Position numbers and translations under genes: made by a program. Shown piece by piece: positions 9,794 through 55,803 of a DNA stretch of 64,000 nt. The notes under the pieces were generated by a model. That model saw only the letters and a program-made list of their open reading frames with translations. It was not told the origin of the DNA and did no database searches. Position 1 is the stretch's first letter. Every line of letters begins with the position of its first letter. This stretch comes from Nevskia sp. (GTDB lineage Bacteria > Pseudomonadota > Gammaproteobacteria > Nevskiales > Nevskiaceae), in NCBI GenBank assembly GCA_028291705.1, contig JAQGNS010000428.1:9255-73254 (forward strand). The letters run 5' to 3'.

Positions 9794-9869
9794 GCTCCTA
9801 TCGTCTAGAGGCCTAGGACGGAGCCCTCTCAAGGCTTAAACCCGGGTTCGAATCCCGGTAGGAGCGCCA
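9794..9869 (+). tRNA. tRNA-Glu, anticodon CTC
   Basis: 76 nt. Acceptor stem GCTCCTA/TAGGAGC, anticodon stem GAGCC/GGCTT with loop CT-CTC-AA, T-arm CCGGG-TTCGAAT-CCCGG, encoded CCA. Confidence 0.96.
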
Positions 9870-11506: not shown

Positions 11507-11826
11507 GTCAGGGCCCGCCCCGCTTTCCCGCTGCCGAAGATCTGCTTCGTGCCATCCCTGTCCCGTCCTGACCTCTCATTGGAGGGACAAGGAATATCGC
11601 AAAGATCAGCCAACATTCAAGGATTGCTGTGTACTGATGAATTTATAATGGTATTTATGACTTGTAAAGCCCCATGTACATGCAAATAGTTTTGTAGGAA
11701 CGACGCTTGATATCTGACCGGTGCAAATGCCTTTTGCGTAGCTTAAAAGACGAAGGATGGTGATTGAAATTGGAAGGGTGAGAACGATGATTGAGAATAT
11801 ATAAGTCACTTCTATATGAGCATATA

Positions 11827-11874
11827 TAAACCCGGATTCTTGTAAATTTATCTACTTGCGCCAACCCGGGTTTA
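11827..11874. repeat. att-like site B: TAAACCCGG-N30-CCGGGTTTA in an AT-rich tract
   Basis: Arms at 11827-11835 and 11866-11874 (extendable to the 11-bp TATAAACCCGG/CCGGGTTTATA). Spacer contains TA...GCGCCA like the tRNA end. Confidence 0.6.
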
Positions 11875-12035
11875 TACGTAGATGTATGCCTCTATCACCG
11901 TCAATACCGGCGGTCGTAAGGCGCCGGTACCCCAGAGATGCCCCTCGTCCTCGAACTGCCGCCGCACTCGCTCTACCGGATCAAACAACGGCCGTACCGC
12001 TGCCGGCGCCGTAAGCGGCCTCGGCCAAGCTGCGC

Positions 12036-12683: not shown

Positions 12684-12857
12684 CATGCACCACCTGCCGG
12701 TAATTGCCCCTTTAGCGTGCACTAGGTGCCGGTTAATCAAACAATTAACAGGCACCACGTGCAGACAAGAAAGAATAAAGAAAAAGAGCTTTTTAAGAAG
12801 GGCCCCGTCCAGCGTTCTGCTGTGGATAAATCGCTGCGCCCCCTTCCTTGTGCACAA
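12638..12857. promoter_or_regulatory. DnaA-box cluster with an A/T-rich stretch (putative oriV)
   Basis: CTATCCACA 12638-12646, TTATCCACA 12662-12670, TGTGGATAA 12821-12829, TTGTGCACA 12848-12856. A-rich tract at about 12730-12800. Confidence 0.6.
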
Positions 12858-12929
12858 CAGCCCAAAAGCCAAAAGCGTTTGCCGAAACGGGCTGGTCGCG
12901 GCCGGCACTGTGCCGACAGGGTTCTGACC

Positions 12930-13607
12930 GTGCGCATCCTCATTGGCGGTGAAAAAGGCGGCAGCGGCAAATCGACCCTGGCAACCAACTTGGTCGTCGC
13001 CCTGCGGCTGGCCGGCCGCGACGCCTTGTTGCTGGACGCGGATGGCCAGCGCACTTCGGCCAAATGGGCCGAACGGCGGGCAGCATCCGAAATCGTCCCG
13101 GCCGTGCCCTGTACCGAGAAGCGCGATGACCTCAAGGCGGTGGTGCGCGAGCTGGGTTCGCGCTATCAGGATGTGGTTGTTGACGCCGGCGGGCGCGACA
13201 GCCGGGAGCTGCGCTCCGCGCTGCTGGTAGCGGATCTGGCCCTGTTTCCGCTGCGGCCGTCGCAGGCGGACCTGGAAACCGTGCCCCATCTGGCCGAGCT
13301 ACTGCAGCTCGCGCGCTCGCTGCGCGAGAACGGTGCTCCGCTCGCTGGACTCGTATTGAGCATGGCGCCGACGCACTACCTGGTCAGTGAAGCTCGCGAC
13401 GCGGCAAGCATGCTCGAAGCCCTGCCGGACTTCGTGCTGGCCGAAACCTTGATCCGCGAACGCAAGGTTTACCGCGACGCATTGCTTTCCGGACGCAGCG
13501 TTCTGGAGATGGACAACGAGACAGCGCACTTCGAGGTGCGCCAACTCATCAAGGAGATCAGCAATGGTGCAATCCAAGTTCCAGTTGCACAGCGCGACCC
13601 TGCCTAG
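12930..13607 (+). CDS. parA: ParA-family ATPase (short, no N-terminal HTH)
   Basis: GTG start VRILIGGEKGGSGKSTLATNL (deviant Walker A), LDADGQRT, VVVDAGG, PLRPSQAD. Confidence 0.9.
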   Translation: MRILIGGEKGGSGKSTLATNLVVALRLAGRDALLLDADGQRTSAKWAERRAASEIVPAVPCTEKRDDLKAVVRELGSRYQDVVVDAGGRDSRELRSALLVADLALFPLRPSQADLETVPHLAELLQLARSLRENGAPLAGLVLSMAPTHYLVSEARDAASMLEALPDFVLAETLIRERKVYRDALLSGRSVLEMDNETAHFEVRQLIKEISNGAIQVPVAQRDPA

Positions 13608-13821
13608 TGCCGCTCCGCCGGCGGAAACGGCGACCGCCAACCGCTTCGTCAATGGTGCAGAGGCACGTAGCACCGAACTGCTGGTGAAGTTCACAGTGCC
13701 GCTGGATAGCGCGCGGCACGACAAGATGCGCGTGCATGCGGCGCTGGCTCGGCGGAGCATGGCGGAATTTCTGCGCGACCTGATCGACCGGTTGCCCGCG
13801 GTCGAACTGCCACCGCGTTAG
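13564..13821 (+). CDS. Ribbon-helix-helix DNA-binding protein (ParG-like partner of ParA)
   Basis: Flexible N-terminus, then VKFTVPLDSARHDKMRVHAALARRSMAEFLRDLIDRL; overlaps the parA end. Confidence 0.75.
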   Translation: MVQSKFQLHSATLPSAAPPAETATANRFVNGAEARSTELLVKFTVPLDSARHDKMRVHAALARRSMAEFLRDLIDRLPAVELPPR

Positions 13822-13833
13822 TCGGAACCTTCA

Positions 13834-15549
13834 TTGCGCTATTCCTGGAAAGATCTGGTGCCGCCGGTGCTGTTCCTGGCGGCCGGTCCCTGGCTGGCTG
13901 GAATGCTGTTCGCTTCGTTTGTCGGCGCCAGGCATTACGTGCCGGGCTACTTCGAATTCGTCGGCATGTGGCATCGCTTTGCGCCCGACCCGCACTACCG
14001 GAAGCTGCTGCATGTGGCCGCTGTAGTTCCGGTGGTGCTAGCGGCCTTGTTTGCGATCATTCCGGCTCTGGCGGGCAGGCCGGCTTACTTCGGCAACGCG
14101 CACTTCGCTGATGAGGCGGAAGTCCGCGCCGCGGGTCTGCGCGCCAGGGAAGGTGTGATTCTCGGCCGGTTGCGCGGCCGTCTGTTGCGAGCGCAAGGCC
14201 AGCTCGGCTTGCTGTTGTTCGCGCCGCCGCGTTCGGGCAAGGGCGTGGGCTTCGTCATTCCAAATCTGCTGACTTGGCGCGATTCAGCCATCGTCAACGA
14301 TCTCAAGCTGGAGAACTACGAGACGACTTCAGGCGCCCGGTCAGCGATGGGCCAGCAAATCGTGCTGTTTGCGCCACTCGATGCCGAAGGGCGCACCCAT
14401 GCCTACAACCCGCTGGACTTCGTATCGAAGGATCGGCGCCTGCGGGTCAATGATGTGCAGGCGATCACCGCCAAGCTGATCGTGACGCCGCCGCGAGCCG
14501 ATCCGATGTGGAGCAACGAGGCGAGGGTGCTGCTCGACGGTCTGATTCTGTTCTTGCTGGATGTGAACCGGCAAGCCTCGCTGGGAGCGGTGTACCGGAT
14601 GGTGCTGTCGGTGCCCAACTTCGCCGACTATCTCACTTGGGCGATGAAGGAATACGATGGCCGGCTCGATCCGGTGGCGGTGATGCAGTTCAACGGGTTC
14701 CTGGGCAAGGCGTTCAAGGAGCAATCGGGCGTGCTTTCGACGCTGAAGGCCTCGCTGTCCCTATTCGCCAACCCGCTGGTGGACCGTGCCACGTCCACTA
14801 CGGAATTCGACCCCAGGGAATTGCGGCGCCGGCCTATGACCATCTACCTCGGCGTAGTGCCGCGTGACATCGCGCGGCTGTCGCCGTTGCTCAATATCTT
14901 CGTGCAGCAGACCTTCGACGGATTGCTCGGGCGGCTGCCGGGGAGGGATGAGCCGCACCAGGTCCTGGCGTTGCTGGACGAGTTCACGGCGCTGGGACGG
15001 CTGGAGAACGTCGAGAAAGGCATTGCCTACTTCGCTGGGTACAACATCATCCTTGCCCCGGTGATACAGGATTTGTCCCAACTGGAGGAGGTATACGGTC
15101 AAGCCGTCACCGAGACTTTCCTGTCCACCGCCAATATCCGTATCGCCTACGCCCAGAACAGCCTCAAGACGGCCAAATACCTGTCGGAGGAGCTGGGCTT
15201 TCGCACCATCACCACGCGGACCAGATCCCGCCATGTCAACGATCCGTGGCAGGGGCATGTCTCGGAATCACAGACCCGGCGCGAGCTACTGCTGCCGCAT
15301 GAAATCCGCGAGCTGGACCGGCGCAAGGCGCTGCTGCTGGTCGAGGCAGCGCCGCCGATCAAGGTGGACAAGATTCGGTACTACCGGGAGCGGGCATTTG
15401 TCCGACTGCTTCGGCCGGAAGTGGGGCGGCCACACCTACGCAACACCACAGTCGAGCCGCCACGAATGCCGGCCGCCGGGCCGCCATTGAGCGACCAGGA
15501 AATCGATCACGTGCTGGAGTCGATTGACTCGAACCGAGCCGCCCGGTGA
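13834..15549 (+). CDS. virD4: Type IV coupling protein, VirD4/TraG family
   Basis: Two N-terminal TM segments, GNAHFA, APPRSGKGVGFVIPNLL (Walker A), LLDEFTALG (Walker B), IQDLSQL. Confidence 0.92.
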   Translation: MRYSWKDLVPPVLFLAAGPWLAGMLFASFVGARHYVPGYFEFVGMWHRFAPDPHYRKLLHVAAVVPVVLAALFAIIPALAGRPAYFGNAHFADEAEVRAAGLRAREGVILGRLRGRLLRAQGQLGLLLFAPPRSGKGVGFVIPNLLTWRDSAIVNDLKLENYETTSGARSAMGQQIVLFAPLDAEGRTHAYNPLDFVSKDRRLRVNDVQAITAKLIVTPPRADPMWSNEARVLLDGLILFLLDVNRQASLGAVYRMVLSVPNFADYLTWAMKEYDGRLDPVAVMQFNGFLGKAFKEQSGVLSTLKASLSLFANPLVDRATSTTEFDPRELRRRPMTIYLGVVPRDIARLSPLLNIFVQQTFDGLLGRLPGRDEPHQVLALLDEFTALGRLENVEKGIAYFAGYNIILAPVIQDLSQLEEVYGQAVTETFLSTANIRIAYAQNSLKTAKYLSEELGFRTITTRTRSRHVNDPWQGHVSESQTRRELLLPHEIRELDRRKALLLVEAAPPIKVDKIRYYRERAFVRLLRPEVGRPHLRNTTVEPPRMPAAGPPLSDQEIDHVLESIDSNRAAR

Positions 15550-26976: not shown

Positions 26977-28221
26977 ATGAATACCAATGTCAATGAAGTG
27001 AATGTCGGTACAGCTGTTTCCCGCCGCCCGGCCAAGTCGGACGTCAAGGTATGGGTCGGTTCGGGTGCGGCGGTGGCAGGCCTGGTTCTGGCCGCCGTCG
27101 TGGGTCTGCACACCAGCGCCACCGCCAGCGCCGCTCCGGTAGAACTGCCGGCAGTCGGGGTCAGCGCCCCGCTGCAGCGTGACCTGGATACTCAGCTCTC
27201 CTTCCTGGGGCAGTATTCCGCGGTGGAGAAGGTCGAACTGCGCGCCCAGGTGGGCGGCACGCTGACCGAGATCCACTTCAAGGACGGCGACGTCGTCAAA
27301 AAGGGCGACCTGCTGTTCGTCATTGACGCCGAGCCTTACCAGATCAAGCTGGCCCAGGCAGCGGCGCAGCTCGAAGCCGCCAAGGCCCGTTACAACTTGG
27401 CTACCCGTGAGATGGCCCGCGCCGAAACCCTGAAGTCCACCGACGCCGGCTCGGCCGAGAACGTGGAGCAACGCCTGGCCGACAAGCTGTCCGCCCAGGC
27501 TGCGGTTGATGGCGCCCAGGCGGCGGTGCGCGATGCCCGCTTCGATCTGGACCGCACCCGCGTCACCGCGCCGTTCACCGGCCGCATCGGCAACCATCAG
27601 GTCTCCGTCGGCAACCTCGTCGCCGGCAGCCGCGCCGCGACCAGCCCGACCACGCTGCTGACCACGCTGGTGTCCCTGGACCCGATCTACCTGGACTTCG
27701 ACATGAGCGAAGCCGACTACAACACCTATCTGCGCAGCCATGAAACGGCCCGCGGCCAGGACCAGGTGACCGTTTCCTCCGGCGATTCCACCGACTTCAG
27801 CCGTGAGGGCAAGCTGGACTTCATCGACAACACGCTGGACCGCTCCAGCGGCACCATCCATGCCCGCGCCGTCATCGCCAACAACGACCTGCAGTTGACC
27901 GCGGGTGGGTTCGGGCGGGTGCGTCTGTCGATGACGAAGCCGGCGACGACCTTATTGGTGCCTGACGCGGCCGTGCTGCCGGATCAGTCCAGCCACGTCG
28001 TGCTGACCGTGGACCAGGACGGCACGGTCTCGTCGAAGCAGGTACAGGTGGGTGATCTGCGCGGGGGGCTGCGCGTCATCCGCTCCGGCCTGCAGCCGAC
28101 CGATCGCGTCGTCATCGACGGCATCCCGACGGCGCATCCGGGCGCGAAGGTCGCTCCCCACGCCGGGACGATCGCCTACGCGGACGACAAGGTTGGCGCC
28201 GTGCAAGTCGGCATGCAGTAA
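26977..28221 (+). CDS. RND efflux periplasmic adaptor (MFP)
   Basis: N-terminal TM, VELRAQVGG, GDVVKKGDLLFVID, TRVTAPFTGRIG, FIDNTLDRSSGTI. Confidence 0.95.
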   Translation: MNTNVNEVNVGTAVSRRPAKSDVKVWVGSGAAVAGLVLAAVVGLHTSATASAAPVELPAVGVSAPLQRDLDTQLSFLGQYSAVEKVELRAQVGGTLTEIHFKDGDVVKKGDLLFVIDAEPYQIKLAQAAAQLEAAKARYNLATREMARAETLKSTDAGSAENVEQRLADKLSAQAAVDGAQAAVRDARFDLDRTRVTAPFTGRIGNHQVSVGNLVAGSRAATSPTTLLTTLVSLDPIYLDFDMSEADYNTYLRSHETARGQDQVTVSSGDSTDFSREGKLDFIDNTLDRSSGTIHARAVIANNDLQLTAGGFGRVRLSMTKPATTLLVPDAAVLPDQSSHVVLTVDQDGTVSSKQVQVGDLRGGLRVIRSGLQPTDRVVIDGIPTAHPGAKVAPHAGTIAYADDKVGAVQVGMQ

Positions 28222-28299
28222 AGCCCGATGGGGCACTGACCCGGCTGGGCACGCACCCAGCCGGGCTTTCAACTGGGACATCTTGACGGAGCTATAACA

Positions 28300-31200
28300 A
28301 TGAAGCTTTCGCATTTTTTCATCGATCATCCGCGGTTCGCCGCCGTGATCAATATCTTTCTCGCGGTATTCGGGTTGGCCACCATGCTGAGTCTGCCGGT
28401 GGCCCAATACCCGAACATCGTTCCTCCCACTATTCAGATCACTACCGCATACCCTGGCGCTTCCGCCGAAACCATTGCCCGTACCGTCGCCACGCCGCTC
28501 GAACAGGCGGTGAACGGCGTCGAGAACATGGACTACATCACCAGCCAGTCCACGGGCAACGGCCTGATCACCATCACCGTCATCTTCAAGGTGGGCACGG
28601 ACCCGAATACCGCCCTGATGCTCACCCAGAGCCGTGTGCAGGACACTCTTTCGCGTCTGCCTCAGGACGTACAGCTGCAGGGCATTCAGGTGAAGAAGAC
28701 GATCCAGGCGCTGCTGCTTGGCGTGCATGTCTACTCGCCGGACGGCTCGCGTGATGCGGAGTTCATGTCCAACTACATGCTCAAGGTCCGTGACGAGATC
28801 GCGCGCCTGCCCGGTATCGCCGACTTCTGGATTCTTGGCGACCGGCAGTACGCGATGCGCATCTGGATCGACCCGGACAAGGCCGCCGCTTACAACGTAA
28901 GCGCCAGCGAGATCGTGGCGGCCCTGCGTGCGCAGAACGCCCAGGTCTCGGCCGGTGTGCTGAACCAGCCGCCCGTCGAAACCGACGCCGCTTACCAGAT
29001 CAATATCGAGGCCCTGGGCCGCCTGACCACGCCCGAGCAGTTCGGCGAGGTCATCGTCAAAGCCGACAACCAGGGCAGAGTGACGCGCATCCGCGACATT
29101 GGCCGCGTCGAGCTGGGCTCGGTGGACTACGGCTCCAAGGCCTACGCCGACAAGGGCATCTCCACGCCGTTCTGGGTGATCGCCACTCCGGGTGCCAACG
29201 TCGTCGAGGTCGAGCACGCGGTGTGGAACAAGATGGCGGAGCTGAAGAAGAAGTTCCCGCCGGGCATCGACTACATCAACATCTACGACCCGACGACCTT
29301 CGTCAGCCAGTCGGTGGAAGAGGTCGTCAAGACGATCTTCATCGCCATCCTGCTGGTGGTGGGCGTGGTCTACATCTTCCTGCAGAACTGGCGCGCCACC
29401 ATCATCCCGGTGGTCGCGATCCCGATCTCTCTGGTGGGTGCCTTCACCGTGCTGGCGATGACCGGCACCTCGATCAACAACCTGTCGCTGTTCGGGCTGG
29501 TACTAGCGGTCGGCATCGTGGTCGATGACGCCATCGTGGTGGTCGAGAACGTCGAGCGCAACATGGCAGCAGGTATGTCGCCGCGCGAGGCGGCGCACAA
29601 GACCATGGATGAAGTGTCCACGGCACTGATCGCCATCGCTTTGACGCTTTGTGCGGTGTTTGTGCCGACGGCCTTTATCTCCGGCATTTCGGGCCTGTTC
29701 TTCAAGCAGTTCGCCATCACCATCGCCGCTTCGACGATCATCTCGGCGTTCGTGTCGCTAACCCTGAGCCCGGCGCTGTGCGCGGTGCTGCTCAAGCCGC
29801 ACGATGGGCCGCATGCCCACAGCGTGAAAGGCCTGATTGGCCGTTCGCTGCAGCGCTTCTTCGACCGCTTCAACGCCGGCTTCGCCTGGCTGTCGACGGG
29901 TTACGGCAAGCTGACCAAGCGCTTCGTGCAGGTGACCGGCATCATGCTGATCATCTACGCCGGCCTGATTGGCCTGACCGGCTTCCAGATGTCGCGCATG
30001 GCCACCGGCTTCATCCCGGAACAGGACATCGGCTACCTGGCGACGATCATCTTTCTGCCGCCAGGCGCGAGCCTGGAGCGCACCGACAAGGTGGTCCGCG
30101 AGGCCAACGACATCGCCCTGAGCACTCCGGGCGTCGAGCACACCTCGCCGATCACCGGTTTCGACGTGACCACCGGCACCGTGGCGCCGAACGTCGGCAC
30201 CATCTTCACCGCGCTGCCCTCGCTGTACGGCAAGCATGTGCCTGGCGTGAATGCCGCCAAGATGGTGCAGATCCTCCGCCAGAAGTATGCCGCTATCAAG
30301 GACGCTTACATCGTGGTGGTGATGCCGCCGGCGGTGCAGGGTCTGGGTTCGGCGGGCGGCTTCAAGATGATGGTGGAGGATCGTGGCGAACTGGGCCCGC
30401 AGGCGCTGGCCAAGGCCACGAACGACCTGGTGGCCGCTGCCCAGAAAGATCCGACCTTCGCCGCAGTGTTCACGTTGTATAACGCGGGCTCACCCAGCAT
30501 CTACGCCGATATCGACCGCCTCAAGGCCGAGAAGGTGGGTCTGACCACGACCGACGTGTTTTCCACCTTGCAGCTTTACATGGGCTCCCAGTACGTCAAC
30601 GACTTCAACTATCTGGGTCGCACGTACCAGGTGATCGCGCAGAGCGATCAGCAGTTCCGCAAGTCGGCCGAAGACATCGGACGGCTGAAGGTTCGCAATG
30701 CCACAGGCGAGATGGTGCCGATCGGCTCCGTCGCCAGCTTCCACGATCGCACCGCGCCGTATCGCATCCCCCGCTACAACCTGTACCCGGCCGCCGAGAT
30801 CATGGGCGCCGCGGCACCGGGCGTGGCCTCCGGCACGGCGATGAAGCGCATGGCCGAGCTGGCCGATCAGGTGCTGCCGGCCGGCGTGACCTTCGAATGG
30901 ACCGAGCTGGCCCACCAGCAGGAGCAGCAGGGCATCCCGACGCTGCTGATCTTCGCGGCTTCGGCGCTGTTCGTGTTCCTGGTGCTGGCCGCACAGTACG
31001 AGAGCTGGAAGACCCCGCTGGCGATCCTGCTGATCGTACCGATGTGCCTGCTGGCGTCATCCACCGGTCTGCACCTGCGTGACATGCCGATCGACATCCT
31101 GGCGCAGATCGGGTTCGTGGTCTTGCTGGGATTGGCGGCGAAGAACGCGATCCTGATCGTGGAATTCGCCAAGCAGCACCAGGACAACGACGGCGCCTCG

Positions 31201-31479
31201 GCCGAGGACGCGGCGGTGCATTCCGCCAAGACCCGCCTACGTCCGATTCTGATGACCTCGTTCGCCTTCATCGCCGGTGTGTTTCCGCTTGCGATCGCCA
31301 GTGGTGCCGGCTCGGAGATGCGCCAATCGCTGGGCACCGCGGTGTTCGCCGGAATGATTGGCGTAACCGTGTTCGGCCTGCTGTTCACCCCCGCGTTCTA
31401 CACCGTGGTTCGCAAGGTTCGCGGCTTTCCCGCGAACCGCACCGCCGACGAGAGCAACCTGACTTCTGGGAGCGTGTAA
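28300..31479 (+). CDS. RND efflux permease (HAE1 family)
   Basis: FFIDHPRFA, LPVAQYP; proton-relay motifs GIVVDDAIVVVEN, AKNAILIVEFA and RLRPILMTS are intact. Confidence 0.97.
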   Translation: MKLSHFFIDHPRFAAVINIFLAVFGLATMLSLPVAQYPNIVPPTIQITTAYPGASAETIARTVATPLEQAVNGVENMDYITSQSTGNGLITITVIFKVGTDPNTALMLTQSRVQDTLSRLPQDVQLQGIQVKKTIQALLLGVHVYSPDGSRDAEFMSNYMLKVRDEIARLPGIADFWILGDRQYAMRIWIDPDKAAAYNVSASEIVAALRAQNAQVSAGVLNQPPVETDAAYQINIEALGRLTTPEQFGEVIVKADNQGRVTRIRDIGRVELGSVDYGSKAYADKGISTPFWVIATPGANVVEVEHAVWNKMAELKKKFPPGIDYINIYDPTTFVSQSVEEVVKTIFIAILLVVGVVYIFLQNWRATIIPVVAIPISLVGAFTVLAMTGTSINNLSLFGLVLAVGIVVDDAIVVVENVERNMAAGMSPREAAHKTMDEVSTALIAIALTLCAVFVPTAFISGISGLFFKQFAITIAASTIISAFVSLTLSPALCAVLLKPHDGPHAHSVKGLIGRSLQRFFDRFNAGFAWLSTGYGKLTKRFVQVTGIMLIIYAGLIGLTGFQMSRMATGFIPEQDIGYLATIIFLPPGASLERTDKVVREANDIALSTPGVEHTSPITGFDVTTGTVAPNVGTIFTALPSLYGKHVPGVNAAKMVQILRQKYAAIKDAYIVVVMPPAVQGLGSAGGFKMMVEDRGELGPQALAKATNDLVAAAQKDPTFAAVFTLYNAGSPSIYADIDRLKAEKVGLTTTDVFSTLQLYMGSQYVNDFNYLGRTYQVIAQSDQQFRKSAEDIGRLKVRNATGEMVPIGSVASFHDRTAPYRIPRYNLYPAAEIMGAAAPGVASGTAMKRMAELADQVLPAGVTFEWTELAHQQEQQGIPTLLIFAASALFVFLVLAAQYESWKTPLAILLIVPMCLLASSTGLHLRDMPIDILAQIGFVVLLGLAAKNAILIVEFAKQHQDNDGASAEDAAVHSAKTRLRPILMTSFAFIAGVFPLAIASGAGSEMRQSLGTAVFAGMIGVTVFGLLFTPAFYTVVRKVRGFPANRTADESNLTSGSV

Positions 31480-32960
31480 TGAATACCAAGACCCTCAAGA
31501 TGACCAAGACCGCGCTGGGTAGCCTGCTGATCAGCGCCACGCTGACGGCCTGTGCCGTCGGTCCCGACTACAGCAAGCCCGACAGCAGCCTGGCGCCGTT
31601 CCACAACCAGCCCAGTGCCACGGTTGTGGGCAAGACCGGGCAGGTGTCGATCGACCAGTGGTGGACCGGCTTCAGCGATCCGATGCTGGTGACCGTGGTA
31701 CAGCGCGCCCTGGACCAGAATCTGGACCTGGCCGCCTCCATCGCCCGCGTGCAACAGGCGAGGGCGGCCGCCTCTGGCGCCGGCGCCAATCTGCTGCCCA
31801 CCGTGGATCTGAACGGTTCGGCCACCTATGCGCGGCAAAGCCTGAACGGCCCCCTGGGTACCGTTGCGTCCAGTTCACCTGGCTTCAGCCGCGGAATCCA
31901 TGAGTACAGCGTCGGCCCGGCAGCCAGTTGGGAGATCGATCTTTTCGGCGGCTTGCGGCGCACGGCTGATGCCGCAGGCGCTGAGGCTCAGGCGGCTGAG
32001 GCGGATCAGGTCGGCACCCGCATCATGGTTGCGGCTGACGCGGCGGATACCTATCTGCAGATTCGCGGCTACCAGGCTCGATTGGCCGTCGCGCAGCAAC
32101 AGATCCAGGACGACGAGCACCTGCTGAAGTTGGTGAACGACCGCTACAGCGCCGGTGCGGGGACCGGGCGCGAGACCGCCCAGGCCGACGCGCTGCTGAA
32201 GCAGGCGCGTGCCAGCGTGCCGGAGTTGGTCATCGGACTGGAGCAGCAACTGAACCGCCTGGACGTGCTGATGGGCGTGCAGCCCGGCACCTACGCTCAA
32301 GAGTTGCGTCAGGTGAAGGAAGTTCCGTCGGTGCCCGCTGTCCCGCTCGACAACCAGCCAACTGACATGCTGCGTCGCCGGCCAGACATCATCGCCGCAG
32401 AGCGCAGGCTGGCGGCTTCCAACGAACTCATCGGGGCGGCCGTTTCGGATTACTACCCGAAGTTTTCGCTGTCCGGGGCACTGGGCTTCGACAGCCTGAG
32501 TCCGGGACGTGTGTTCCAGGCCCAGTCTTTTGCAGCCACCGGTGGCGGCGCGATCCGCTGGCGGTTGTTCGATTTCGGCAAGGTGGATGCCGAGGTGGCG
32601 CAGGCCAAGGGTGCCAATGCCGAGGGGCTGGCGCTGTATCGCCAGTCGGTGCTGAAGGCAGCCGAGGATGTCGAGGATTCGCTGATGCTGCTGGCCCAAA
32701 CCCAGCTGCGCGTGAACGAGATCCAGGATCAGGTTGATGCGCTGGTGAAGTCCCGCGACCTGTCGGAGCAGGCCTACCGCGCCGGCTCCATCACCCTGAC
32801 CGATGTGCTCAATGCGGACAGCCAGTTGCTGACGGCCCGCGATGAGCTCGATTCGAATCGCGCCAACGCGGCGAGAGCTGCAGTCGGCGTGTATCGGGCA
32901 CTCGGCGGCGGCTGGACGCCGCCGATAGTGACTACCGCTACGGGTAGTCACAACAGCTAG
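31479..32960 (+). CDS. Outer membrane efflux lipoprotein (NodT/OprM family)
   Basis: LTACAVGPDY lipobox, WWTGFSDP, SWEIDLFG, RRPDIIAAERRL, YRALGGGW. Confidence 0.95.
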   Translation: MNTKTLKMTKTALGSLLISATLTACAVGPDYSKPDSSLAPFHNQPSATVVGKTGQVSIDQWWTGFSDPMLVTVVQRALDQNLDLAASIARVQQARAAASGAGANLLPTVDLNGSATYARQSLNGPLGTVASSSPGFSRGIHEYSVGPAASWEIDLFGGLRRTADAAGAEAQAAEADQVGTRIMVAADAADTYLQIRGYQARLAVAQQQIQDDEHLLKLVNDRYSAGAGTGRETAQADALLKQARASVPELVIGLEQQLNRLDVLMGVQPGTYAQELRQVKEVPSVPAVPLDNQPTDMLRRRPDIIAAERRLAASNELIGAAVSDYYPKFSLSGALGFDSLSPGRVFQAQSFAATGGGAIRWRLFDFGKVDAEVAQAKGANAEGLALYRQSVLKAAEDVEDSLMLLAQTQLRVNEIQDQVDALVKSRDLSEQAYRAGSITLTDVLNADSQLLTARDELDSNRANAARAAVGVYRALGGGWTPPIVTTATGSHNS

Positions 32961-35703: not shown

Positions 35704-35737
35704 GCCTGATGCAGCTCGAGATTGAGCTGCATCAGGC
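35704..35737. terminator. Strong hairpin closing the RND/hydrolase operon
   Basis: Perfect 14-bp stem GCCTGATGCAGCTC/GAGCTGCATCAGGC with a 6-nt loop, 11 bp after the stop; weak U tract. Confidence 0.6.
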
Positions 35738-35757
35738 AATCTATTCAAGAGGATGGA

Positions 35758-36312
35758 ATGTCCGCAATTGTTTCAAATGTCGAGAGCAGTGACCGGGTAA
35801 TCGGCTCGATGCGGTATGAACCCGATATCCTCGCGATTGGCCTGGATGTGGTGTTCTGCGGCATCAATCCGGCGTGGAGCGCGGCGGTCGCCGGCCACAA
35901 TTTCTCGCATCGCAGCAATCGCTTCTGGCCCGCATTGCATCTCGCCGGTTTCATCGATGAGTGCCTCGAACCCGAAGACGAACAGCGCTTGCTTCAGTAC
36001 GGTTGTGGCATCACGGTGGTGGTGCGCCGGCCGACTTGCAAGGCAGAGGACGTTGCCACGGAAGAATTTATCCGCGCCAAGGCGGATTTCGAAGCCAAGA
36101 TGCGAGCCCTCGCGCCGCGGTCGATCGCCTTCCTTGGTAAGCGCCCGTTGTCGGCAATGACCGGGCAGGCGAGCATCCCCTGGGGGCGGCAACCAACGCC
36201 CTTTGCCGGAACGCTTGCCTGGGTGCTGCCCAATCCCAGCGGCCTCAACCGGAGTTTCACTCTGAAGGCTCTGGTGGCGGCGTATGCCGAGCTGCGGATG
36301 GCACTTATATGA
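35758..36312 (+). CDS. mug: G/U mismatch-specific DNA glycosylase (UDG family 2)
   Basis: GLDVVFCGINP, NRFWPALHLAGF, GCGITVVVRRPT and VLPNPSGLN match E. coli Mug motifs; GAGGA RBS. Confidence 0.92.
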   Translation: MSAIVSNVESSDRVIGSMRYEPDILAIGLDVVFCGINPAWSAAVAGHNFSHRSNRFWPALHLAGFIDECLEPEDEQRLLQYGCGITVVVRRPTCKAEDVATEEFIRAKADFEAKMRALAPRSIAFLGKRPLSAMTGQASIPWGRQPTPFAGTLAWVLPNPSGLNRSFTLKALVAAYAELRMALI

Positions 36313-36902
36313 CGCGCCCTTTCAAATACCTTTACCACCTTGCGGAGGCGGATAACCTTAACTCCATCCTGGTCCATGGGCTGATGAGCACCGAACGATT
36401 GCTCGGTTTGGCGCACATCTCCGATTCGGACCGCATAACGCAGCTTCGAGGCCACAGGCAGGACAATGTCCGCCTGCCTAACGGTGTGGTGATCCGAGAT
36501 CAGCGGCCGATGCCGCCAACTGCGCTCGCTCGGGCGCTCGACGATGGTCTGGTGCCATCTGATTGGTATGCATTGCTCAACAGCTTCGTTTTCTTGTGGC
36601 CCAACCGAGAGCGCATGGACAGGCAACGCTCCGCTTGTGGCGCTCGCCCCCAGGTCGTGCTCACTTTTGACGGAGTTGCGCTGCTCGATCGCTTTCAGGC
36701 AGATGTCTTCGTATCTCCAATCAATAGCGGGAACGCCCGTCGAAAGGCAGCCCGTCGCGGACGGGGCACACTGATCCCATACAAGACCTGGGTACAAGCT
36801 GGCTGGCCGACGGGTCAGCGTTCGCGTCACCCGGCTGAATTTCTGTTCGCTTGCATCGTACCAGTACAGGCGCCCTACTTGGTTGATATCGCAAGGTTCT
36901 AG
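36309..36902 (+). CDS. DarT-like DNA ADP-ribosyltransferase-fold protein (DUF7002/DUF4433-like)
   Basis: LYHLAEADNLNSILVHGLMS, GHR, FVFLWP and PAEFLF parallel the DarT motifs IYHITHLNNLQGIL, HR, YVPFYF and QAEFLV. ATGA overlap with mug. Confidence 0.72.
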   Translation: MTRPFKYLYHLAEADNLNSILVHGLMSTERLLGLAHISDSDRITQLRGHRQDNVRLPNGVVIRDQRPMPPTALARALDDGLVPSDWYALLNSFVFLWPNRERMDRQRSACGARPQVVLTFDGVALLDRFQADVFVSPINSGNARRKAARRGRGTLIPYKTWVQAGWPTGQRSRHPAEFLFACIVPVQAPYLVDIARF

Positions 36903-37214
36903 CAATGCGTCTTTTTCATTATTTGAAAAAGAGAGACATTATGGATCCATAAGGAAAGCTGTACTGATCGATGCGGCTTAAATTGAGCAAGCTGAGGTCA
37001 CGAGATCTGCTAAGTGGCGCTTCCGGGCGTGATCGTGACTTGCGCAGCCGAAAGCGGACGTCTTTAGTGGCATGTTGACCGCATGTCCGGCAGCTTTTCA
37101 GCACCGACTTCAAGGTGCCGAACGACTCTAACTGGCAAATTCCGTTGAAAAACCCGGTGATCGATGCTGATGCTCCGAGAATCTGCAAAACATGCTCGCG
37201 ACAGTGACGTTCTG

Positions 37215-37983
37215 ACCGCCTATACCCCGCCGACAGATATCCGGATGGGCAATGGGACTATTACCGGTTTTACCTGACGCACTTCGACCTGACCGTCAGC
37301 GATATGGAGGCGGACATTCCCGCGACCCTCGCATCACTCTTGGCGATGCTGCCAGCCTTCCAATTGGCGCGATAACTGCCTGGGAAGCGATGTTCCGGGA
37401 TCAGGGCGCGTTGCCTTCTGGCGTCGAACGTGTGCTCATCGTCGGTGGCGCCGGCGCCGTAGGCTCGCTGGCCACTCAACTACTAAAGGCCAAGACGAAC
37501 GCCTTTGTGATCAGCACTGGCTCTCGTACGGAATCGAAGTCCTGGTGCACGAAGATGGGCGCCGACCTAGTCCTCGATCATTCAGGCGACATACCTGCAC
37601 AGCTTGCTGCGGCCAATGTCACCAACGTCGATATGGTGCTATCGACCGCAAATACGGTCGACAACCTCAGCTGGATTGCACAGGTTCTCCGACCATTCGG
37701 GCATCTCTCCATCATGGATGGCGCTGCGTCGGTAGACACCAGCCAGCTGATGGTGAAGGCCGCTTCGATCCATATGGAAATGGTGTTCAGCAGGATCATT
37801 AACGGCGCCGCCCCACAGCTTCAGGGCAACATCCTCGGGATGATCGCTGATCTCGTTGTAGCCGGTCGAATGAAGCCAATCGTAACGACGCGGCTGAACG
37901 GCTTAAACCCAGAAACCATGAAGGCCGCTCACGAACTCGCGGAGACTGGGCGCACGATCGGCAAAATCGTCATCGCAATGTGA
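37215..37983 (+). pseudogene. Fused remnants: epoxide-hydrolase-like fragment joined to the C-terminal part of a zinc-type alcohol dehydrogenase-like/quinone reductase
   Basis: LYPADRYPDGQWDYYRFY... in one frame. Then AASLPIGAITAWEAM, VLIVGGAGAVGS and GRTIGKIVI in another frame, lacking the N-terminal domain. Confidence 0.65.
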
Positions 37984-38172
37984 TCCATCTGACGATCGCT
38001 TGCCAGTGTGGCCTGCGCAGCGGCACGGCAGACAAAAAGTATCGAACGCTCCACGCGAACAGGAAACGCGGCACTAGGAGGCGGTGCGGCTGCTGATCAA
38101 CCGCGGGCAATTGATCAAAGAGGAACGATGTCAGATTTTGAGGCCGCTCGGCGCTATGCAGGCTTCCGATTA

Positions 38173-39465
38173 TCAGGTCGGCAGGTTGCAGCCATCGGGG
38201 AACTGCGCAGGCGATTTGAGTCGGATAGCCAGCATCGAAGAAAAAGTTTGTACCTTGGAGTCCGGCTGAACGATATCCATATCCACCGACACACAACGGA
38301 AGCCCGCAATGGCCTTCGGGTCCGAAAACTGTAGTGCCTGCACGCTCTTGATTCGCAAGATACGGGTTTCACCAGCGGGGATGGTGATCCAATCTTTGTC
38401 GTCGGAATTAAGCACCTGTACTGGAATCTCACAGTTGGAGCCATTCGCCTCGAACCCGTGAGGGCAACTGCCGCTTCCATCGTAGGTCAGCCTTAAGCGC
38501 ACGCTGTCAGGAGCGATCACCAAAGCGGTGTCAGAATGGTTGGTGAGCGACAGGGGCAGAGGCTTCTGGCTGGCAAAACTCAACATTTCGGCGGGTCGAA
38601 CGTCGAACTGTCCGACGTAGGCGAGTGTCGGATCGCCCAGAGATTGCTCAAGGTGGTCGATCTTGGCCACAACCAGGATTGCAAAAACCAGGAGACCGTA
38701 AGCGGGGGGCGCCAGCTCGATATGGCGAATCCACCGTTTGGGACTTGGAGCGGCGGCATAAAGCACGCGCGTACACAAATAGGTCACTACCAGTAGCGGA
38801 AGCGCGATCGCCAGACTTCCTAGCTTGTAGGGCGAGCCGATAAGTGAGGTTGGCAGGATCAGGGACGCCAGAACTTTGATGCCGACGGTCAGCTCGATCG
38901 CTGCCACCATCATGATCAGCGCGAACGCCGGCGTGTAAAGCACGGCAGCCCGCCATGCCTTGCGACGCACGCCCTTCGCCCTGGCCCCGACCACGGCGTG
39001 AATGACCACGCCGACCAAGAAAACAGGGAACATGACCTTGAAACTGCGTTCCGGGCTTTGAATAACGTCCAGCGCACGCTTATAGAAGCCGAACAGCAGA
39101 TCCAGCCCCTTGATCTGGCTGCTGGCCACAGCCGATGCGTACGCTGTGTTAAACAAGGCGGCCCTGCAGCGGTCGCCGAACATGATGAGCGCCGCCAACA
39201 GGGGCGAAAAAATGAAGAACAGCAATGGGCGGATGCCCTTCTCTCGCTGTACCTCTTCGCTATCCAACAGCGTCTGAGGATTGCGCAGCAGCCAGTACAT
39301 GTCGGTGAACACAGCCCAAAGCCGCCTCACGCCCGACTGAAATCCGCCGACCATCTTCTCTGCCCAGTCGGCTTTAGTGGCTTCCGGTTCGGTTTCGTTG
39401 CCGCCCCGCAGACGAACGAGAAAGGGCGGGGTGGGCGGTTGCCTGCGATTTCCGTGTGACGCCAT
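38173..39465 (-). CDS. Uncharacterised multi-pass membrane protein with a C-terminal beta-rich domain
   Basis: GGGAG RBS 7 nt before ATG at 39465; several TM segments; LLRNP...RPLLFFIFSPLL resembles DUF3667/Yip1-like starts. Confidence 0.7.
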   Translation of the reverse strand: MASHGNRRQPPTPPFLVRLRGGNETEPEATKADWAEKMVGGFQSGVRRLWAVFTDMYWLLRNPQTLLDSEEVQREKGIRPLLFFIFSPLLAALIMFGDRCRAALFNTAYASAVASSQIKGLDLLFGFYKRALDVIQSPERSFKVMFPVFLVGVVIHAVVGARAKGVRRKAWRAAVLYTPAFALIMMVAAIELTVGIKVLASLILPTSLIGSPYKLGSLAIALPLLVVTYLCTRVLYAAAPSPKRWIRHIELAPPAYGLLVFAILVVAKIDHLEQSLGDPTLAYVGQFDVRPAEMLSFASQKPLPLSLTNHSDTALVIAPDSVRLRLTYDGSGSCPHGFEANGSNCEIPVQVLNSDDKDWITIPAGETRILRIKSVQALQFSDPKAIAGFRCVSVDMDIVQPDSKVQTFSSMLAIRLKSPAQFPDGCNLPT

Positions 39466-39495
39466 AGCCTTGCTCCCGAGCGGCTTTTAAAAGAT

Positions 39496-39535
39496 TTGAC
39501 AGCATAACTGTACAAAAGTACAGTTATGCTGTCAA
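39496..39535. promoter_or_regulatory. 40-bp palindrome: symmetric divergent sigma70 promoter with a central LexA box
   Basis: TTGACAGCATAACTGTAC-AAAA-GTACAGTTATGCTGTCAA. CTGT-N8-ACAG at 39508-39523; TTGACA-17-TACAGT on both strands. Confidence 0.75.
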
Positions 39536-39706
39536 GAACCGTGTGCCATGCGCGAATTGCTATGTGCACTGCTGGGGCAGTTGAGCGGGCGGGGCTCTGG
39601 CTTCGGAGCCCCGAGCCAAAGCTCCTCGCTGACTTAACAATTGGGAAAGTGGTTGCTGCGCGTCCGTGGCGCTTAGGATTGGGCTAGGACCACGTTCGAG
39701 GGCTCT

Positions 39707-40006
39707 ATGGCCAACATCGCTCACTTGATGAACCTGACGTTCTGGGGGCTGCATTTGTTTGGCATCCCTATCTGCATCGGTATCTTCTTTGCCCGCCGCA
39801 ATCGCGGCGCAGTGATCCAGCTATCGGTGCTGTTGATCGTCATCTGCGGATGGCTGTTTCTCCAGGGCGGCGCGGTCCGGATCTTGGCGTACAGCCAAGC
39901 GCTGCCCGACCCGCAGCAGCAGGCCGACGCCATCCTATTCTTCTCCACCGCAGTTTACAGCGCGATTGCGGTCAATACCCTTGCCAACGCCTTGACGCGG
40001 GAGTGA
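39707..40006 (+). CDS. Small membrane protein (99 aa, about 3 TM)
   Basis: Three hydrophobic segments; GAGG RBS; 4 bp from the next gene. Confidence 0.65.
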   Translation: MANIAHLMNLTFWGLHLFGIPICIGIFFARRNRGAVIQLSVLLIVICGWLFLQGGAVRILAYSQALPDPQQQADAILFFSTAVYSAIAVNTLANALTRE

Positions 40007-40010
40007 GGCG

Positions 40011-40553
40011 ATGACCATTCCTGTGGAAGAAAGTCAGGTTACGCCGGAGCTGTTGTCCACCTTGGGCCAAGCCGTGATGGACTTTGGATTTATGGAAAGC
40101 GTCGTCCGGACGGCCATCACTACGTTGGCGCGTCATACCACGGTGGCAAAGGCCCTGGTCCTTCCGGGCGACGCCATTTCGCGAAATCTGGAAGTCCTGG
40201 CGCGCTTGTGCCAGGCGCGGGTCCATCCGAGCGCGCAGGGCGACTGGTTGGCCGCGGTGGACGACATCAAGACCTTGTACGAAGAACGCAACCGTATCTT
40301 TCACGGGATGTTCTACGAACACGAAAACAAGCTGTGGCTGTCCAAGACCAAACGCAGCAAACGGGGCCAAGCCGATCAGCATCATCGCATTGAAGTCGAA
40401 ATCCAGATGATTCAGGCCCTGCTACGGCGATTGCACGACCGCCGCCGTCAGTTTATGGACTTCATCGATGATTACGGGCAAGGCGACGACGGACCTGCAC
40501 ATGCGCCGTCGCAGGAAACGCATCCGAGTTTGCGCATCACGGCTAGCGGCTGA
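40011..40553 (+). CDS. Putative HEPN-domain protein
   Basis: Helical composition, N-terminal GQAVMDFGFMES segment, and an R-x4-H motif (ERNRIFHG). Confidence 0.6.
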   Translation: MTIPVEESQVTPELLSTLGQAVMDFGFMESVVRTAITTLARHTTVAKALVLPGDAISRNLEVLARLCQARVHPSAQGDWLAAVDDIKTLYEERNRIFHGMFYEHENKLWLSKTKRSKRGQADQHHRIEVEIQMIQALLRRLHDRRRQFMDFIDDYGQGDDGPAHAPSQETHPSLRITASG

Positions 40554-40615
40554 GGTGATGTTCGCTGCTGGTGGCCCGCTCAAAACTCCGGCCAGATCAC
40601 GAGTTTTGCAGCACC

Positions 40616-40766
40616 CGCCTGCTGCGGCCCGAGGTCGAATGGCCGCGGCTACGAAATGCAGTTGCTGAACCCCCCGCGGATGCCGGCTGCCGGACTGCCC
40701 CTGAGCGACCAAGAGATCGACGAGGTCCTGGCCGGTCTTGGTCCAGAACGAGGCAGCACGCACTGA
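40616..40766 (+). pseudogene. Isolated 3' end of a second virD4-like gene (frameshifted)
   Basis: RLLRPEVEWPRLRNAVAEP / PRMPAAGLPLSDQEIDEVL versus the VirD4 tail RLLRPEVGRPHLRNTTVEPPRMPAAGPPLSDQEIDHVL. One extra C in a C run. Confidence 0.8.
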
Positions 40767-40834
40767 TCCGGGGCGTCACGGTTCCGTCAAATAGCAAGGA
40801 AATTCAGGCTTATCCGCAGCTTGGGCCCGGATTT

Positions 40835-40869
40835 TGGTACCCGGTTTACGGTTATGGCACTCGTAAGTA
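40835..40869 (+). promoter_or_regulatory. Putative ECF-sigma promoter, copy 1
   Basis: TGGTACCCGGTTT-N12-CTCGTAAGTA upstream of the sigma gene; near-identical copy at 42666-42700. Confidence 0.65.
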
Positions 40870-40934
40870 TTTAGGACCCGGAGTTTGTGCCGTATTCCGT
40901 GGGCATTAGGGCGCTGTTTTCATGGGTAAGGTCC

Positions 40935-41495
40935 ATGATAACGGGGCATGTTCGAGGGCTGGATGCTTTGAAGGAAGACAAGCAAACCTTCTGGACGCGG
41001 TTGATCGCCGAGCACTATTCGGCGCTGACCGTGTATTTCCGGCGCCGGATTGCGCAGCCCGCCGAGGCCGAAGATCTGGTGCAGGAAGCCTATATGCGCT
41101 TGATCCGCATCGACCAAGGCGAAGGCGAAGCGATCCACAACCCCGAGGCCTACCTGTTCACCGTGGCGGAAAACCTGGTCCGCGAGCACGCCGTCATGCG
41201 CAAGCGCGCGGCGGTGGACATGGATTTGGACGAACTGGCGCCGGAACTGCTGGCGGTGCATGACACCACGGAGTCGGACCTGGACAAGGGACTGCGCCGG
41301 AAACAGCTGACGGCAGTATTCGAACGGCTGTCGACGCAGCATCGAGCCGTCCTGGTTATGCATTACCGCGACGGCCTCACGTACCAGGGCATCGCCGAGC
41401 AGTTGGGGGTATCGGTTCACATGGTCAAGAAGCATGTCGTCAAGGCGCTAGCGGCCTGCCGCACCGGCTTGGCGCAGTATCGGTGGGAGGATTGA
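40935..41495 (+). CDS. ECF sigma factor (FecI-like); exact start uncertain
   Basis: AEDLVQEAYMRL (region 2), NPEAYLFTVAENL, GLTYQGIAEQLGVSVHMVKKHVVKAL (region 4). Confidence 0.92.
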   Translation: MITGHVRGLDALKEDKQTFWTRLIAEHYSALTVYFRRRIAQPAEAEDLVQEAYMRLIRIDQGEGEAIHNPEAYLFTVAENLVREHAVMRKRAAVDMDLDELAPELLAVHDTTESDLDKGLRRKQLTAVFERLSTQHRAVLVMHYRDGLTYQGIAEQLGVSVHMVKKHVVKALAACRTGLAQYRWED

Positions 41496-41496
41496 T

Positions 41497-42621
41497 ATGA
41501 CCGTTCAGGACGAACGCGTGCGGGAGCTGATCGCCGAGCAGGCAGCGGAGTGGTATGTCGAGAATCGCGGCGGCGAGATGACCGCGCAGCAGAAACAGGA
41601 GTTCATGCGTTGGCTGCGGGCGTCCCCGCTGAATGTCTCCGAATATCTCGCCATCGCTGGAATCGCGCGCGGTGTCGGAAACGTTGCAAAGGGGGTGCAA
41701 ATGCCTTTGGAGGAGTTGATCGCCCAGGCGTCGGCTGACAGCAACGTGGTGCAGCTCCCCACTGCGAATCGGCCTCGCGCCGAACAGGCGTTGTCGATGA
41801 AGCCGGAGCGCCGCCTGAACCGTCCGTTCGCTGGACGGGGTACGTGGGCTTCGGCGGCGGTTGCAGTTGCGATCGTCATCGGCGGTTGGGCTTGGCTTTC
41901 CCAACAAAGCAACAACCAGCAATACGCCACTCGTCACGGTGAGGAACGGACACTGACGCTAGCGGATGATACTGTGGTGCACCTCAACTCGGATTCGGCG
42001 TTGGCAGTTCATTTCGATGAACATCATCGTGATGTTGAAGTCGAGCGCGGGCAGGCTTTATTTGAAGTGGCGAAGGATGCTACGCGGCCGTTCCAGGTCC
42101 GTGCTGGAACTTCTGTGATCGAGGATATCGGGACTGTATTCGATGTGTTCCGGCAGGATGCACAGACGGTAGTGACCGTGGTCGAGGGGCAAGTTACCGT
42201 GTGGGACTCCGCGAGCTTGCTTTTGCCTGCGCCGGCAACATCACCCTCTTCCGCGCTCCTAACGAAACCCCAACCGCTCGCGGACCTGCGCGCGGGTGAC
42301 CAGGTGCGGATCGCACAGACCGGGCAAGTTGAGACAAGGCGGGCAGCCAACGTACAGAAGGCGACTGCCTGGGTGCGGAACGAGATCGTCTTTGATCGGG
42401 ACTCGATCGCTTCGGTGGCCGCCGAGTTCAACCGCTACAACCGAATCCAGATCAAAGTGGACGATCCGCGCGTGGCCGCCATGCCAATCAGCGGTGTGTT
42501 TCACACTTATGACATCGAGTCCTTTGCGGACTTCCTCAACGGACTGCATGGCGTGCATGCGGCGATGCTGAATCAGCAACTTCTCGTAAGCAGCAGGGCT
42601 GCTGCATCTTCGGCCGACTAA
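41497..42621 (+). CDS. FecR-family anti-sigma/transmembrane sensor
   Basis: EQAAEWYV...WLRASP, TM segment, TRHGEERTLTLADDTVVHLNSDS, GQALFEVAKDATRPF, EFNRYN. Confidence 0.93.
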   Translation: MTVQDERVRELIAEQAAEWYVENRGGEMTAQQKQEFMRWLRASPLNVSEYLAIAGIARGVGNVAKGVQMPLEELIAQASADSNVVQLPTANRPRAEQALSMKPERRLNRPFAGRGTWASAAVAVAIVIGGWAWLSQQSNNQQYATRHGEERTLTLADDTVVHLNSDSALAVHFDEHHRDVEVERGQALFEVAKDATRPFQVRAGTSVIEDIGTVFDVFRQDAQTVVTVVEGQVTVWDSASLLLPAPATSPSSALLTKPQPLADLRAGDQVRIAQTGQVETRRAANVQKATAWVRNEIVFDRDSIASVAAEFNRYNRIQIKVDDPRVAAMPISGVFHTYDIESFADFLNGLHGVHAAMLNQQLLVSSRAAASSAD

Positions 42622-55716: not shown

Positions 55717-55803
55717 CGCCAGTGGCCGGTAAATCTCCGCAAACTCCTTATGGCGTACCATAGTACGAGAGCAACGGATTGCTCGAATTGCGGGAGAGAT
55801 TTG

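Follow-up and report, generated by a model that had tools for sequence, protein, structure and literature searches.

What does a perfect 40-bp palindrome do in the spacer between divergent genes? The question is raised by positions 39496 to 39535 of a 64-kb stretch of DNA (contig JAQGNS010000428.1, Nevskia sp.; the whole stretch is called the window here), where the letters read TTGACAGCATAACTGTAC-AAAA-GTACAGTTATGCTGTCAA. To the left of the palindrome, a gene for a putative membrane protein of 430 amino acids (aa) is read leftwards, and to its right, two genes for a 99-aa transmembrane (TM) protein and a 180-aa protein are read rightwards. The original prediction took the element to be a two-way sigma70 promoter that is at the same time a LexA box, and proposed that a single SOS switch fires the genes on both sides. 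Our answer is similar in form and more reserved in degree: we give a probability of about 0.5 to a pair of interdigitated divergent sigma70 promoters that are repressed by one LexA-class dimer and that DNA damage would release together.

The palindrome is real and non-random

A repeat search reproduced the predicted palindrome exactly. The two arms (39496-39513 and 39518-39535) are 18 nt long and 100% complementary, with the 4-nt AAAA loop between them, and of the 22 short-range inverted repeats in the 64-kb window, this one was ranked at the top. As a single-strand DNA hairpin it reaches -19.9 kcal/mol (z = -9.3), which none of 200 shuffles equaled, and a cruciform would be thermodynamically possible at this site. 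Seven of the 18 pairs in the stem are G-C. No third copy of the 18-mer half-site was present in the window at ≤3 mismatches, where 0.02 copies were expected.

The original prediction allowed that the palindrome might turn out to be an assembly artefact. Only one sequencing run (X1) contained all sampled words of the locus, and Logan's separate assembly of this run yielded a 20-kb contig at a depth of 28 that spans 37000-41500 with zero differences. This makes an artefact of the deposited contig unlikely, on a check that compares assembled contigs rather than raw reads. A second sample contained identical low-depth fragments of neighbouring parts and none over the palindrome itself. The palindrome is thus taken as real and non-random in what follows.

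Two predicted promoters are mirrored around one LexA-type box

The promoter scan found the same arrangement, TTGACA-17-TACAGT with a score of 10/12, on both strands (+, 39496..39524; -, 39535..39507), so the claim of two identical back-to-back promoters stands in sequence terms. In the surrounding 3-kb region, 4 promoter-like sites were detected compared to 0.9 expected. The two -10 hexamers are 6 bp apart and flank the dyad. Assuming a 7-nt spacing from the -10 hexamer, rightward transcription would start near 39531 (G) and leftward transcription near 39500 (G). The predicted starts would then be ~31 bp apart, each of them inside the -35 hexamer of the opposite promoter. From these positions, a leader of ~35 nt containing GGGAG would lead to the leftward ATG at 39465, and one of ~176 nt to the rightward ATG at 39707; plausible ribosome sites are present for both divergent genes.

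The center of the palindrome carries CTGT-N8-ACAG (39508-39523), which takes in the ACAG of the + strand -10 hexamer and the CTGT of the - strand -10 hexamer. The original prediction of a LexA-type box over both -10 elements was therefore accurate with respect to the letters. This motif is the LexA motif of Escherichia coli and of most beta- and gammaproteobacteria, and LexA sites are typically near or over the polymerase site (PMC3323433). The position of the box over both predicted -10 hexamers agrees with this rule. CTGT-N8-ACAG occurs once in the 64-kb window. When the published LexA box consensus, aCTGtatatatataCAGtt (PMC2248561, Table 5), is taken as background, the 20-bp site AACTGTACAAAAGTACAGTT agrees with the extended consensus (aCTGTAtatatatACAGtt) and with its A/T-rich center, and the C/G at positions 8 and 13 depart from it. 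The longer form CTGTA-N6-TACAG is rarer than chance and appeared in 0 of 100 shuffles.

The same box is found upstream of umuD

An indication that this variant of the box can serve as an SOS operator came from IMG/VR viral contigs, which were scanned for the exact 20-mer frame AACTGTAC-N4-GTACAGTT (16 specified bases). Nine loci contained it. In four of the nine (L022, L024, L025, and L026), a Peptidase_S24 umuD-like gene follows directly downstream of the box, and in L022, L025, and L026 the umuD-like gene is followed by a reading frame for a Y-family polymerase of the umuC type. In L022 and L025, an SRAP gene is divergent to umuD and the box lies between the two. Among the plasmid relatives of this umuD, 43 of 45 were from Pseudomonas. 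The remaining five matches fell within the coding sequence of RNA-phage-like contigs, within a helix-turn-helix (HTH) gene, or in very A/T-rich DNA, and these look like chance matches.

Judged by these loci, the exact box variant of the palindrome is used at a hallmark SOS operon, divergent spacers included. Because CTGTA-N6-TACAG is rare and the same 16 specified bases stand upstream of umuD, AACTGTAC-N4-GTACAGTT at the palindrome qualifies, on sequence grounds, as a beta/gamma-type LexA operator.

Two of these loci are worth recording in their own right. L022 (1690-1872) and L025 (11668-11752) are Pseudomonas-type integrated elements in which one LexA-type box lies between a divergent umuD-umuC pair and an SRAP (yedK-like) gene. 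The SRAP peptidase, an SOS-response-associated protein, would thereby be placed on the same operator as an error-prone polymerase.

A single-site switch and the points that weigh against it

These features can be put together as follows. All control of a small accessory module would reside in the palindrome. One repressor dimer, either LexA or a LexA-like protein of the same specificity, would sit on the dyad and block RNA polymerase both ways. Upon DNA damage, the repressor would be lost, and from one site the gene for the 430-aa membrane protein would be transcribed leftwards and the operon for the 99-aa TM protein and the 180-aa protein rightwards. Since the two polymerase footprints overlap completely, a polymerase at one promoter would exclude the other, and a single firing would go in one direction at a time. 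We infer promoter activity, start sites, LexA binding in the host, and the functions of the products from the DNA letters.

Several points weigh against such a switch. First, the host order, Nevskiales, neighbours the Xanthomonadales, whose LexA uses TTAGTArwawTACTAa (TTAGTA-N4-TACTAA) and is blind to the E. coli motif (PMC2248561, PMC3108266), and no literature was found on the LexA motif of Nevskiales. Second, the bare CTGT-N8-ACAG core is unremarkable, with 0.57 occurrences expected per window and at least one in 46 of 100 shuffles. Third, no box or palindrome was found upstream of the relatives of either flanking family (L001-L003, L011-L017, and L028). Because no other locus of either family has a CTGT box or a comparable palindrome, SOS control, if any, would be specific to the palindrome locus. 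Fourth, the rightward leader is long (~176 nt), with no special RNA fold (z = +0.29) and no Rfam match. Finally, the runs holding the locus are soil DNA metagenomes only.

A search of other genomes, which the original prediction had suggested, added a further point of this kind. The architecture TTGACA-N6-CTGT-N8-ACAG-N6-TGTCAA was scanned against 185,579 species genomes and found in no gammaproteobacterial species representative; it was in no viral contig either. The 7 matches were all in Actinomycetota, Chloroflexota, or Terricaulis and belonged to unrelated TGTCAA-repeat operators. A blastn search with the 40-mer against plasmids and phages returned matches at chance level only, and the 2.7-kb locus had no relative among plasmids.

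Host lineage and the origin of the locus

Whether a LexA box can be read depends on the host. The valyl-tRNA synthetase (ValRS) encoded in the window has metagenome relatives that are 91-96% identical, and its best named relatives are Nevskia, Nevskiaceae, Stenotrophobium, Solimonas, and Panacagrimonas, at 71-80% identity. By these ValRS relatives, the host is placed in the Nevskiaceae, order Nevskiales, class Gammaproteobacteria. The window proteins tested were all singletons at 90% identity. Two other placements were considered and set aside. A Burkholderiales host was suggested by genes on the island described below (a resistance-nodulation-division [RND] pump and a serine dehydratase); this cargo is misleading and was overruled by ValRS. 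A Pseudomonas host was rejected, as PepA and LptG match Pseudomonas PDB structures no better than enterobacterial ones.

This placement bears on one part of the original prediction. CTGT-N8-ACAG is indeed the LexA box of most gammaproteobacteria (PMC3323433), but an ordinary gammaproteobacterial host had been assumed, whereas the Nevskiales adjoin the Xanthomonadales, the documented gammaproteobacterial exception in LexA motif (PMC2248561, PMC3108266). No Xanthomonas-type box was found near the locus, and no SOS gene was found in the window or in the locus of a close relative (L027). The Nevskiales stand between the CTGT-type beta/gamma majority and the TTAGTA-type Xanthomonadales, and the locus raises the question of which SOS box this order uses.

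Comparison with L027, whose ValRS is 95% identical, also placed the locus on an island. In L027, the order is valS, holC, pepA, lptF, lptG, RDD, MaoC, and tRNA-Glu, followed by pcnB, folK, and panB. The window is collinear with it as far as the tRNA-Glu (9794-9869). Past the tRNA-Glu, the window has instead genes for a large serine recombinase (515 aa), ParA, and a TraG-type coupling protein (9794-15549 compared with L027 1-4900), and pcnB was not found in the window. Because collinearity stops at the tRNA-Glu and the window has no pcnB, at least 54 kb, the palindrome included, is by this comparison horizontally acquired island DNA. The right end of the island is beyond the window. TraG is <41% identical to any plasmid homologue, and the host range of the island is therefore not inferable from it.

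G+C drops from ~0.63-0.66 to ~0.58 around the palindrome locus. Just left of the module, an open reading frame (ORF) for a zinc-type alcohol dehydrogenase (37252-37983) is without the N-terminal GroES-like domain, and Pfam ADH_zinc_N starts at its residue 69. The gene has probably been truncated, which suggests a further insertion breakpoint beside the module. An RND efflux operon on the island (26977-32960) encodes a membrane-fusion protein, a 1059-aa pump, and an outer-membrane factor. These proteins are 77-78% identical to Cupriavidus/Paraburkholderia chromid genes, a much higher identity than a core gene of Nevskiaceae would lead one to expect, and one that points to a betaproteobacterial origin of this cargo.

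Since the locus is on a horizontally acquired island, the box may reflect the wiring of a donor. The promoters would then be real and the LexA-type box a relic from beta/gamma hosts with a CTGT-type LexA, in which the island would have evolved; nothing would bind it in the Nevskiaceae host, and the module would be constitutive or limited by polymerase competition. We regard this as unlikely, though as the likeliest of the alternatives. The location of the locus on an island at a tRNA-Glu, the absence of this island from a relative with 95% identical ValRS, and the contrast between cargo such as the RND pump and core genes that are those of Nevskiaceae all agree with a relic. In addition, the CTGT-type motif is not used by Xanthomonadales, and mobile elements are known to retain beta/gamma LexA sites in hosts unable to read them (PMC3108266). 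However, a perfect, undecayed 40-bp palindrome argues for a recent origin or ongoing selection, expressing a multi-pass membrane protein together with a putative toxin-like pair in the absence of repression would probably burden the cell, and the LexA specificity of Nevskiales is not known to differ.

The proposal of one SOS switch for the membrane gene and the TM/180-aa pair, as originally made, is thus kept in part. Its mirrored promoters, its box over both -10 hexamers, and the occurrence of the same box at umuDC operons speak for it; its assumption about the host LexA does not, and neither does the fact that the locus is island DNA.

Other regulators, DNA structure, and chance

The palindrome extends further than two promoters and a LexA site need. 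Beyond the promoters and the 20-bp LexA site, 4 bp per side (GCAT/ATGC) are symmetric, and from the symmetry beyond the LexA box the original prediction had guessed at an extra dimeric regulator or a cruciform. A regulator other than LexA could be a LexA2-type paralogue, a CI/SetR-like repressor of the island, or an unrelated protein, with the resemblance to a LexA1-type box being partial or coincidental. Apart from the extra symmetry, the center GTACAAAAGTAC agrees exactly with GTAC-N4-GTRC, the motif of Pseudomonas LexA2, which belongs to a lexA2-imuA-imuB-imuC cassette (PMC5544203), and a mobile element could encode its own repressor outside the window. But the guess of a further regulator found no support in the gene content: no extra regulator gene is nearby, there is no HTH or S24 gene beside the site or among the window ORFs scanned, and neither an imu cassette nor a lexA2 gene is present in the 64-kb window. 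Further, the GTAC-N4-GTRC motif is a short one that fits 4 distinct sites in the window (6 strand-wise matches compared to 1.47 expected), so that the match is weak evidence; there is no second copy of the half-site to mark a regulon; and the outermost symmetric bases of the palindrome are exactly TTGACA, which the promoters account for. Another regulator is therefore rather doubtful as the owner of this operator. The GCAT/ATGC symmetry is best explained by origin rather than function: hairpin-templated strand switching may have mirrored one promoter half and so produced the perfect symmetry.

One of the other GTAC-N4-GTRC sites is itself palindromic (GTAC-N4-GTAC, GTACCATAGTAC). It lies at 55755-55766, in the spacer after an ORF ending at 55716 and outside any CTGT box, and may be due to chance.

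A role of the DNA structure as such is improbable. Under this reading, negative supercoiling would extrude a cruciform that masks or uncovers the promoters, or the palindrome would be a transfer origin, a recombination site, a terminator, or a transposon inverted-repeat junction. The hairpin free energy on each strand with an A/T loop, the hit of the terminator scan on the - strand (the hairpin followed by ATCTTTTAAA), and the coupling protein and recombinase of the island all fit some version of it. The individual versions fare less well. An intrinsic terminator was rejected because the stem has 7/18 G-C pairs, the T-run is weak and has interruptions, and the genes on either side are read away from the site, leaving nothing to terminate. 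A transposon junction was rejected because there is no other copy of the arm in the 64 kb (≤3 mismatches), as transposon ends would need, and no transposase flanks the site. A transfer origin (oriT) was rejected because the transfer genes are 24 kb away. Structure alone would also leave unexplained why perfect -35 hexamers, a 17-bp spacer, -10 hexamers, and a LexA box occur jointly.

Finally, a chance or mutational palindrome without function in an intergenic spacer would agree with its single occurrence, its lack of conservation in any relative, and the near-orphan flanking genes, but z = -9.3 and the coincidence of consensus -35 hexamers, correct spacing, and a umuDC-type box just where two genes need promoters make this highly improbable.

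The flanking genes

The features of the locus are collected in Table 1.

TABLE 1 Features of the palindrome locus and the island junction (window coordinates)
Feature	Position	Strand	Remark
tRNA-Glu(CUC), left junction of island	9794..9869	+	Synteny with L027 ends here
Leftward gene, 430 aa	38173..39465	-	Several hydrophobic helices, C-terminal beta-rich domain
40-bp palindrome	39496..39535	none	Two perfect 18-nt arms around AAAA
-35 TTGACA, rightward promoter (predicted)	39496..39501	+	Promoter scan
-10 TACAGT, rightward promoter (predicted)	39519..39524	+	Promoter scan
-35 TTGACA, leftward promoter (predicted)	39530..39535	-	Promoter scan
-10 TACAGT, leftward promoter (predicted)	39507..39512	-	Promoter scan
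20-bp LexA-type operator (candidate), AACTGTACAAAAGTACAGTT	39506..39525	none	Core CTGT-N8-ACAG 39508-39523; covers both -10 hexamers
GTAC-AAAA-GTAC (GTACAAAAGTAC)	39510..39521	none	Exact match to Pseudomonas LexA2 motif GTAC-N4-GTRC
Rightward gene 1, 99 aa	39707..40006	+	Three hydrophobic segments; singleton at 90% identity
Rightward gene 2, 180 aa	40011..40553	+	Starts 4 nt past gene 1 stop

The 430-aa protein had no family match in family profile searches, and its structure model is poor (predicted local distance difference test [pLDDT] score of 54). Among 1.8 billion cluster representatives, it had a single full-length relative, at 31% identity, besides a split copy and a repeat protein whose match is confined to the C-terminal beta domain. 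The gene of the full-length relative is followed by one for a 522-aa HEPN_LA2681 protein. The split copy (L028/L030, same JGI contig) consists of 252-aa and 147-aa ORFs downstream of a SocA_Panacea gene and a gene for a ribonucleotide reductase small subunit.

The family of the 180-aa protein comprises ~9 clusters and 5 metagenome loci, and ERNxxFHGMF is invariant in 9 of its sequences. The protein contains the HEPN Rx4-6H motif as R93-N-R-I-F-H98, and its model (pLDDT 75) combines four helices with a sheet of three strands and ends in a further helix. Searches of Pfam, PADLOC, NCBIfam, and PHROG gave no match, the PDB sequence matches were none better than E = 0.08, the best PDB fold match had E = 0.93, and there were no phage relatives. 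The original description of this protein as HEPN-like is thus borne out by the invariant RNxxFH motif and by none of the Pfam, PADLOC, NCBIfam, PDB sequence, or PDB fold comparisons. Because neither fold nor profile searches recognise the protein, "HEPN-like" denotes a resemblance at the motif level only. What lies next to its relatives varies, from HicA and integrases to an IS21 insertion and a membrane protein of 300 aa. Both families have the look of rare accessory genes of the conflict type.

In one locus (L016, 2609-5541), an IS21-like transposase gene truncates one of the genes of the 180-aa family, and a 453-aa protein encoded upstream has an RNEITH motif.

From this gene content, a bolder version of the single-site switch can be drawn, which we consider speculative and unlikely. 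The mirrored promoter would be the single trigger of a suicide or defence module on an integrative island, fired by DNA damage or phage. A LexA-class dimer would hold down a near-orphan multi-pass membrane effector on one side and a pair made of a TM protein and an Rx4H-motif protein on the other. Because the two polymerase sites are mutually exclusive, each derepressed cell would choose one arm stochastically, and the island would bring SOS wiring into Nevskiales. The hints for this version are the company of the two families, i.e., HEPN_LA2681 and a Panacea-domain antitoxin-type gene next to relatives of the membrane protein and HicA, integrases, IS21, and membrane proteins next to relatives of the 180-aa protein.

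Some other features of the island were noted. Directly upstream of the ORF at 11882, there is an operator-like inverted repeat, TATAAACCCGGATT / AACCCGGGTTTATA (11825-11876; 14 nt, 93% complementary, 24 nt apart). At 35722-36902, a gene for a Mug-type G/U mismatch DNA glycosylase (NCBIfam PRK10201, 171 bits, above cutoff) has a 4-nt overlap with a DUF7002 gene. The latter has weak similarity to DarT (DNA ADP-ribosyltransferase) in three libraries, and the two may be a pair of DarT-like enzyme and glycosylase. A perfect 14-nt inverted repeat (35704-35717/35724-35737) reaches across the spacer that follows the upstream hydrolase gene and into the first bases of the Mug ORF.

Comparison with known systems

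If active, the palindrome would present, in unusually clean natural form, the sharing of one operator by two identical promoters on a perfect dyad. Competition between polymerases at bidirectional promoters, and the control of two operons from one site, could be studied here in a compact setting, and two unannotated protein families would join the SOS-controlled accessory genes. If the box is instead a relic, it would show mobile islands bringing regulatory sites into hosts unable to read them.

The closest resemblance in sequence is to the beta/gamma LexA operators of umuDC/rulAB-type operons, where CTGT-N8-ACAG also overlaps the core promoter and the same 16 bases are found at umuD. In contrast to these, the genes at the palindrome are not DNA-repair genes but a near-orphan membrane protein gene and the TM/180-aa pair, the host belongs to the Nevskiaceae, and the site is not conserved in homologous loci. 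With respect to layout, a single SOS box common to divergent genes is described for E. coli uvrA/ssb (PMC9505508). There, as in the umuD/SRAP spacers of L022 and L025 and at the palindrome, one LexA-type site lies between divergent genes. However, in uvrA/ssb and umuD/SRAP, the box is near one gene and the promoters are not mirrored, whereas at the palindrome the box is exactly on the dyad of identical promoters.

Symmetry-derived bidirectional promoters, described by Warman, Grainger and colleagues, have one shared -10 element and divergent starts typically 18, 10, or 23 bp apart (PMC12825309). In that class, pseudo-symmetrical DNA drives divergent transcription and one polymerase excludes the other, as would also be the case at the palindrome. 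The palindrome differs in having two separate -10 hexamers (39507-39512 and 39519-39524), two full -35 hexamers, perfect symmetry, and predicted starts ~31 bp apart. With two full promoters at this distance and no single shared -10, it was placed outside that class. The Pseudomonas LexA2 operator is matched at the center, but the matching motif is short and nested in the LexA1-type box.

The overall plan also has precedents under other repressors. The 40-bp bioO operator of E. coli bioA/bioBFCD (bound by BirA) and the tetA/tetR region of Tn10 are palindromic regions of ~40 bp with two divergent promoters under one repressor. They differ from the palindrome in repressor class and operator sequence, their palindromes are imperfect, and one of their genes is tied to the signal of the repressor. 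Set beside these systems, the palindrome is most likely a further example of the already known one-operator divergent switch.

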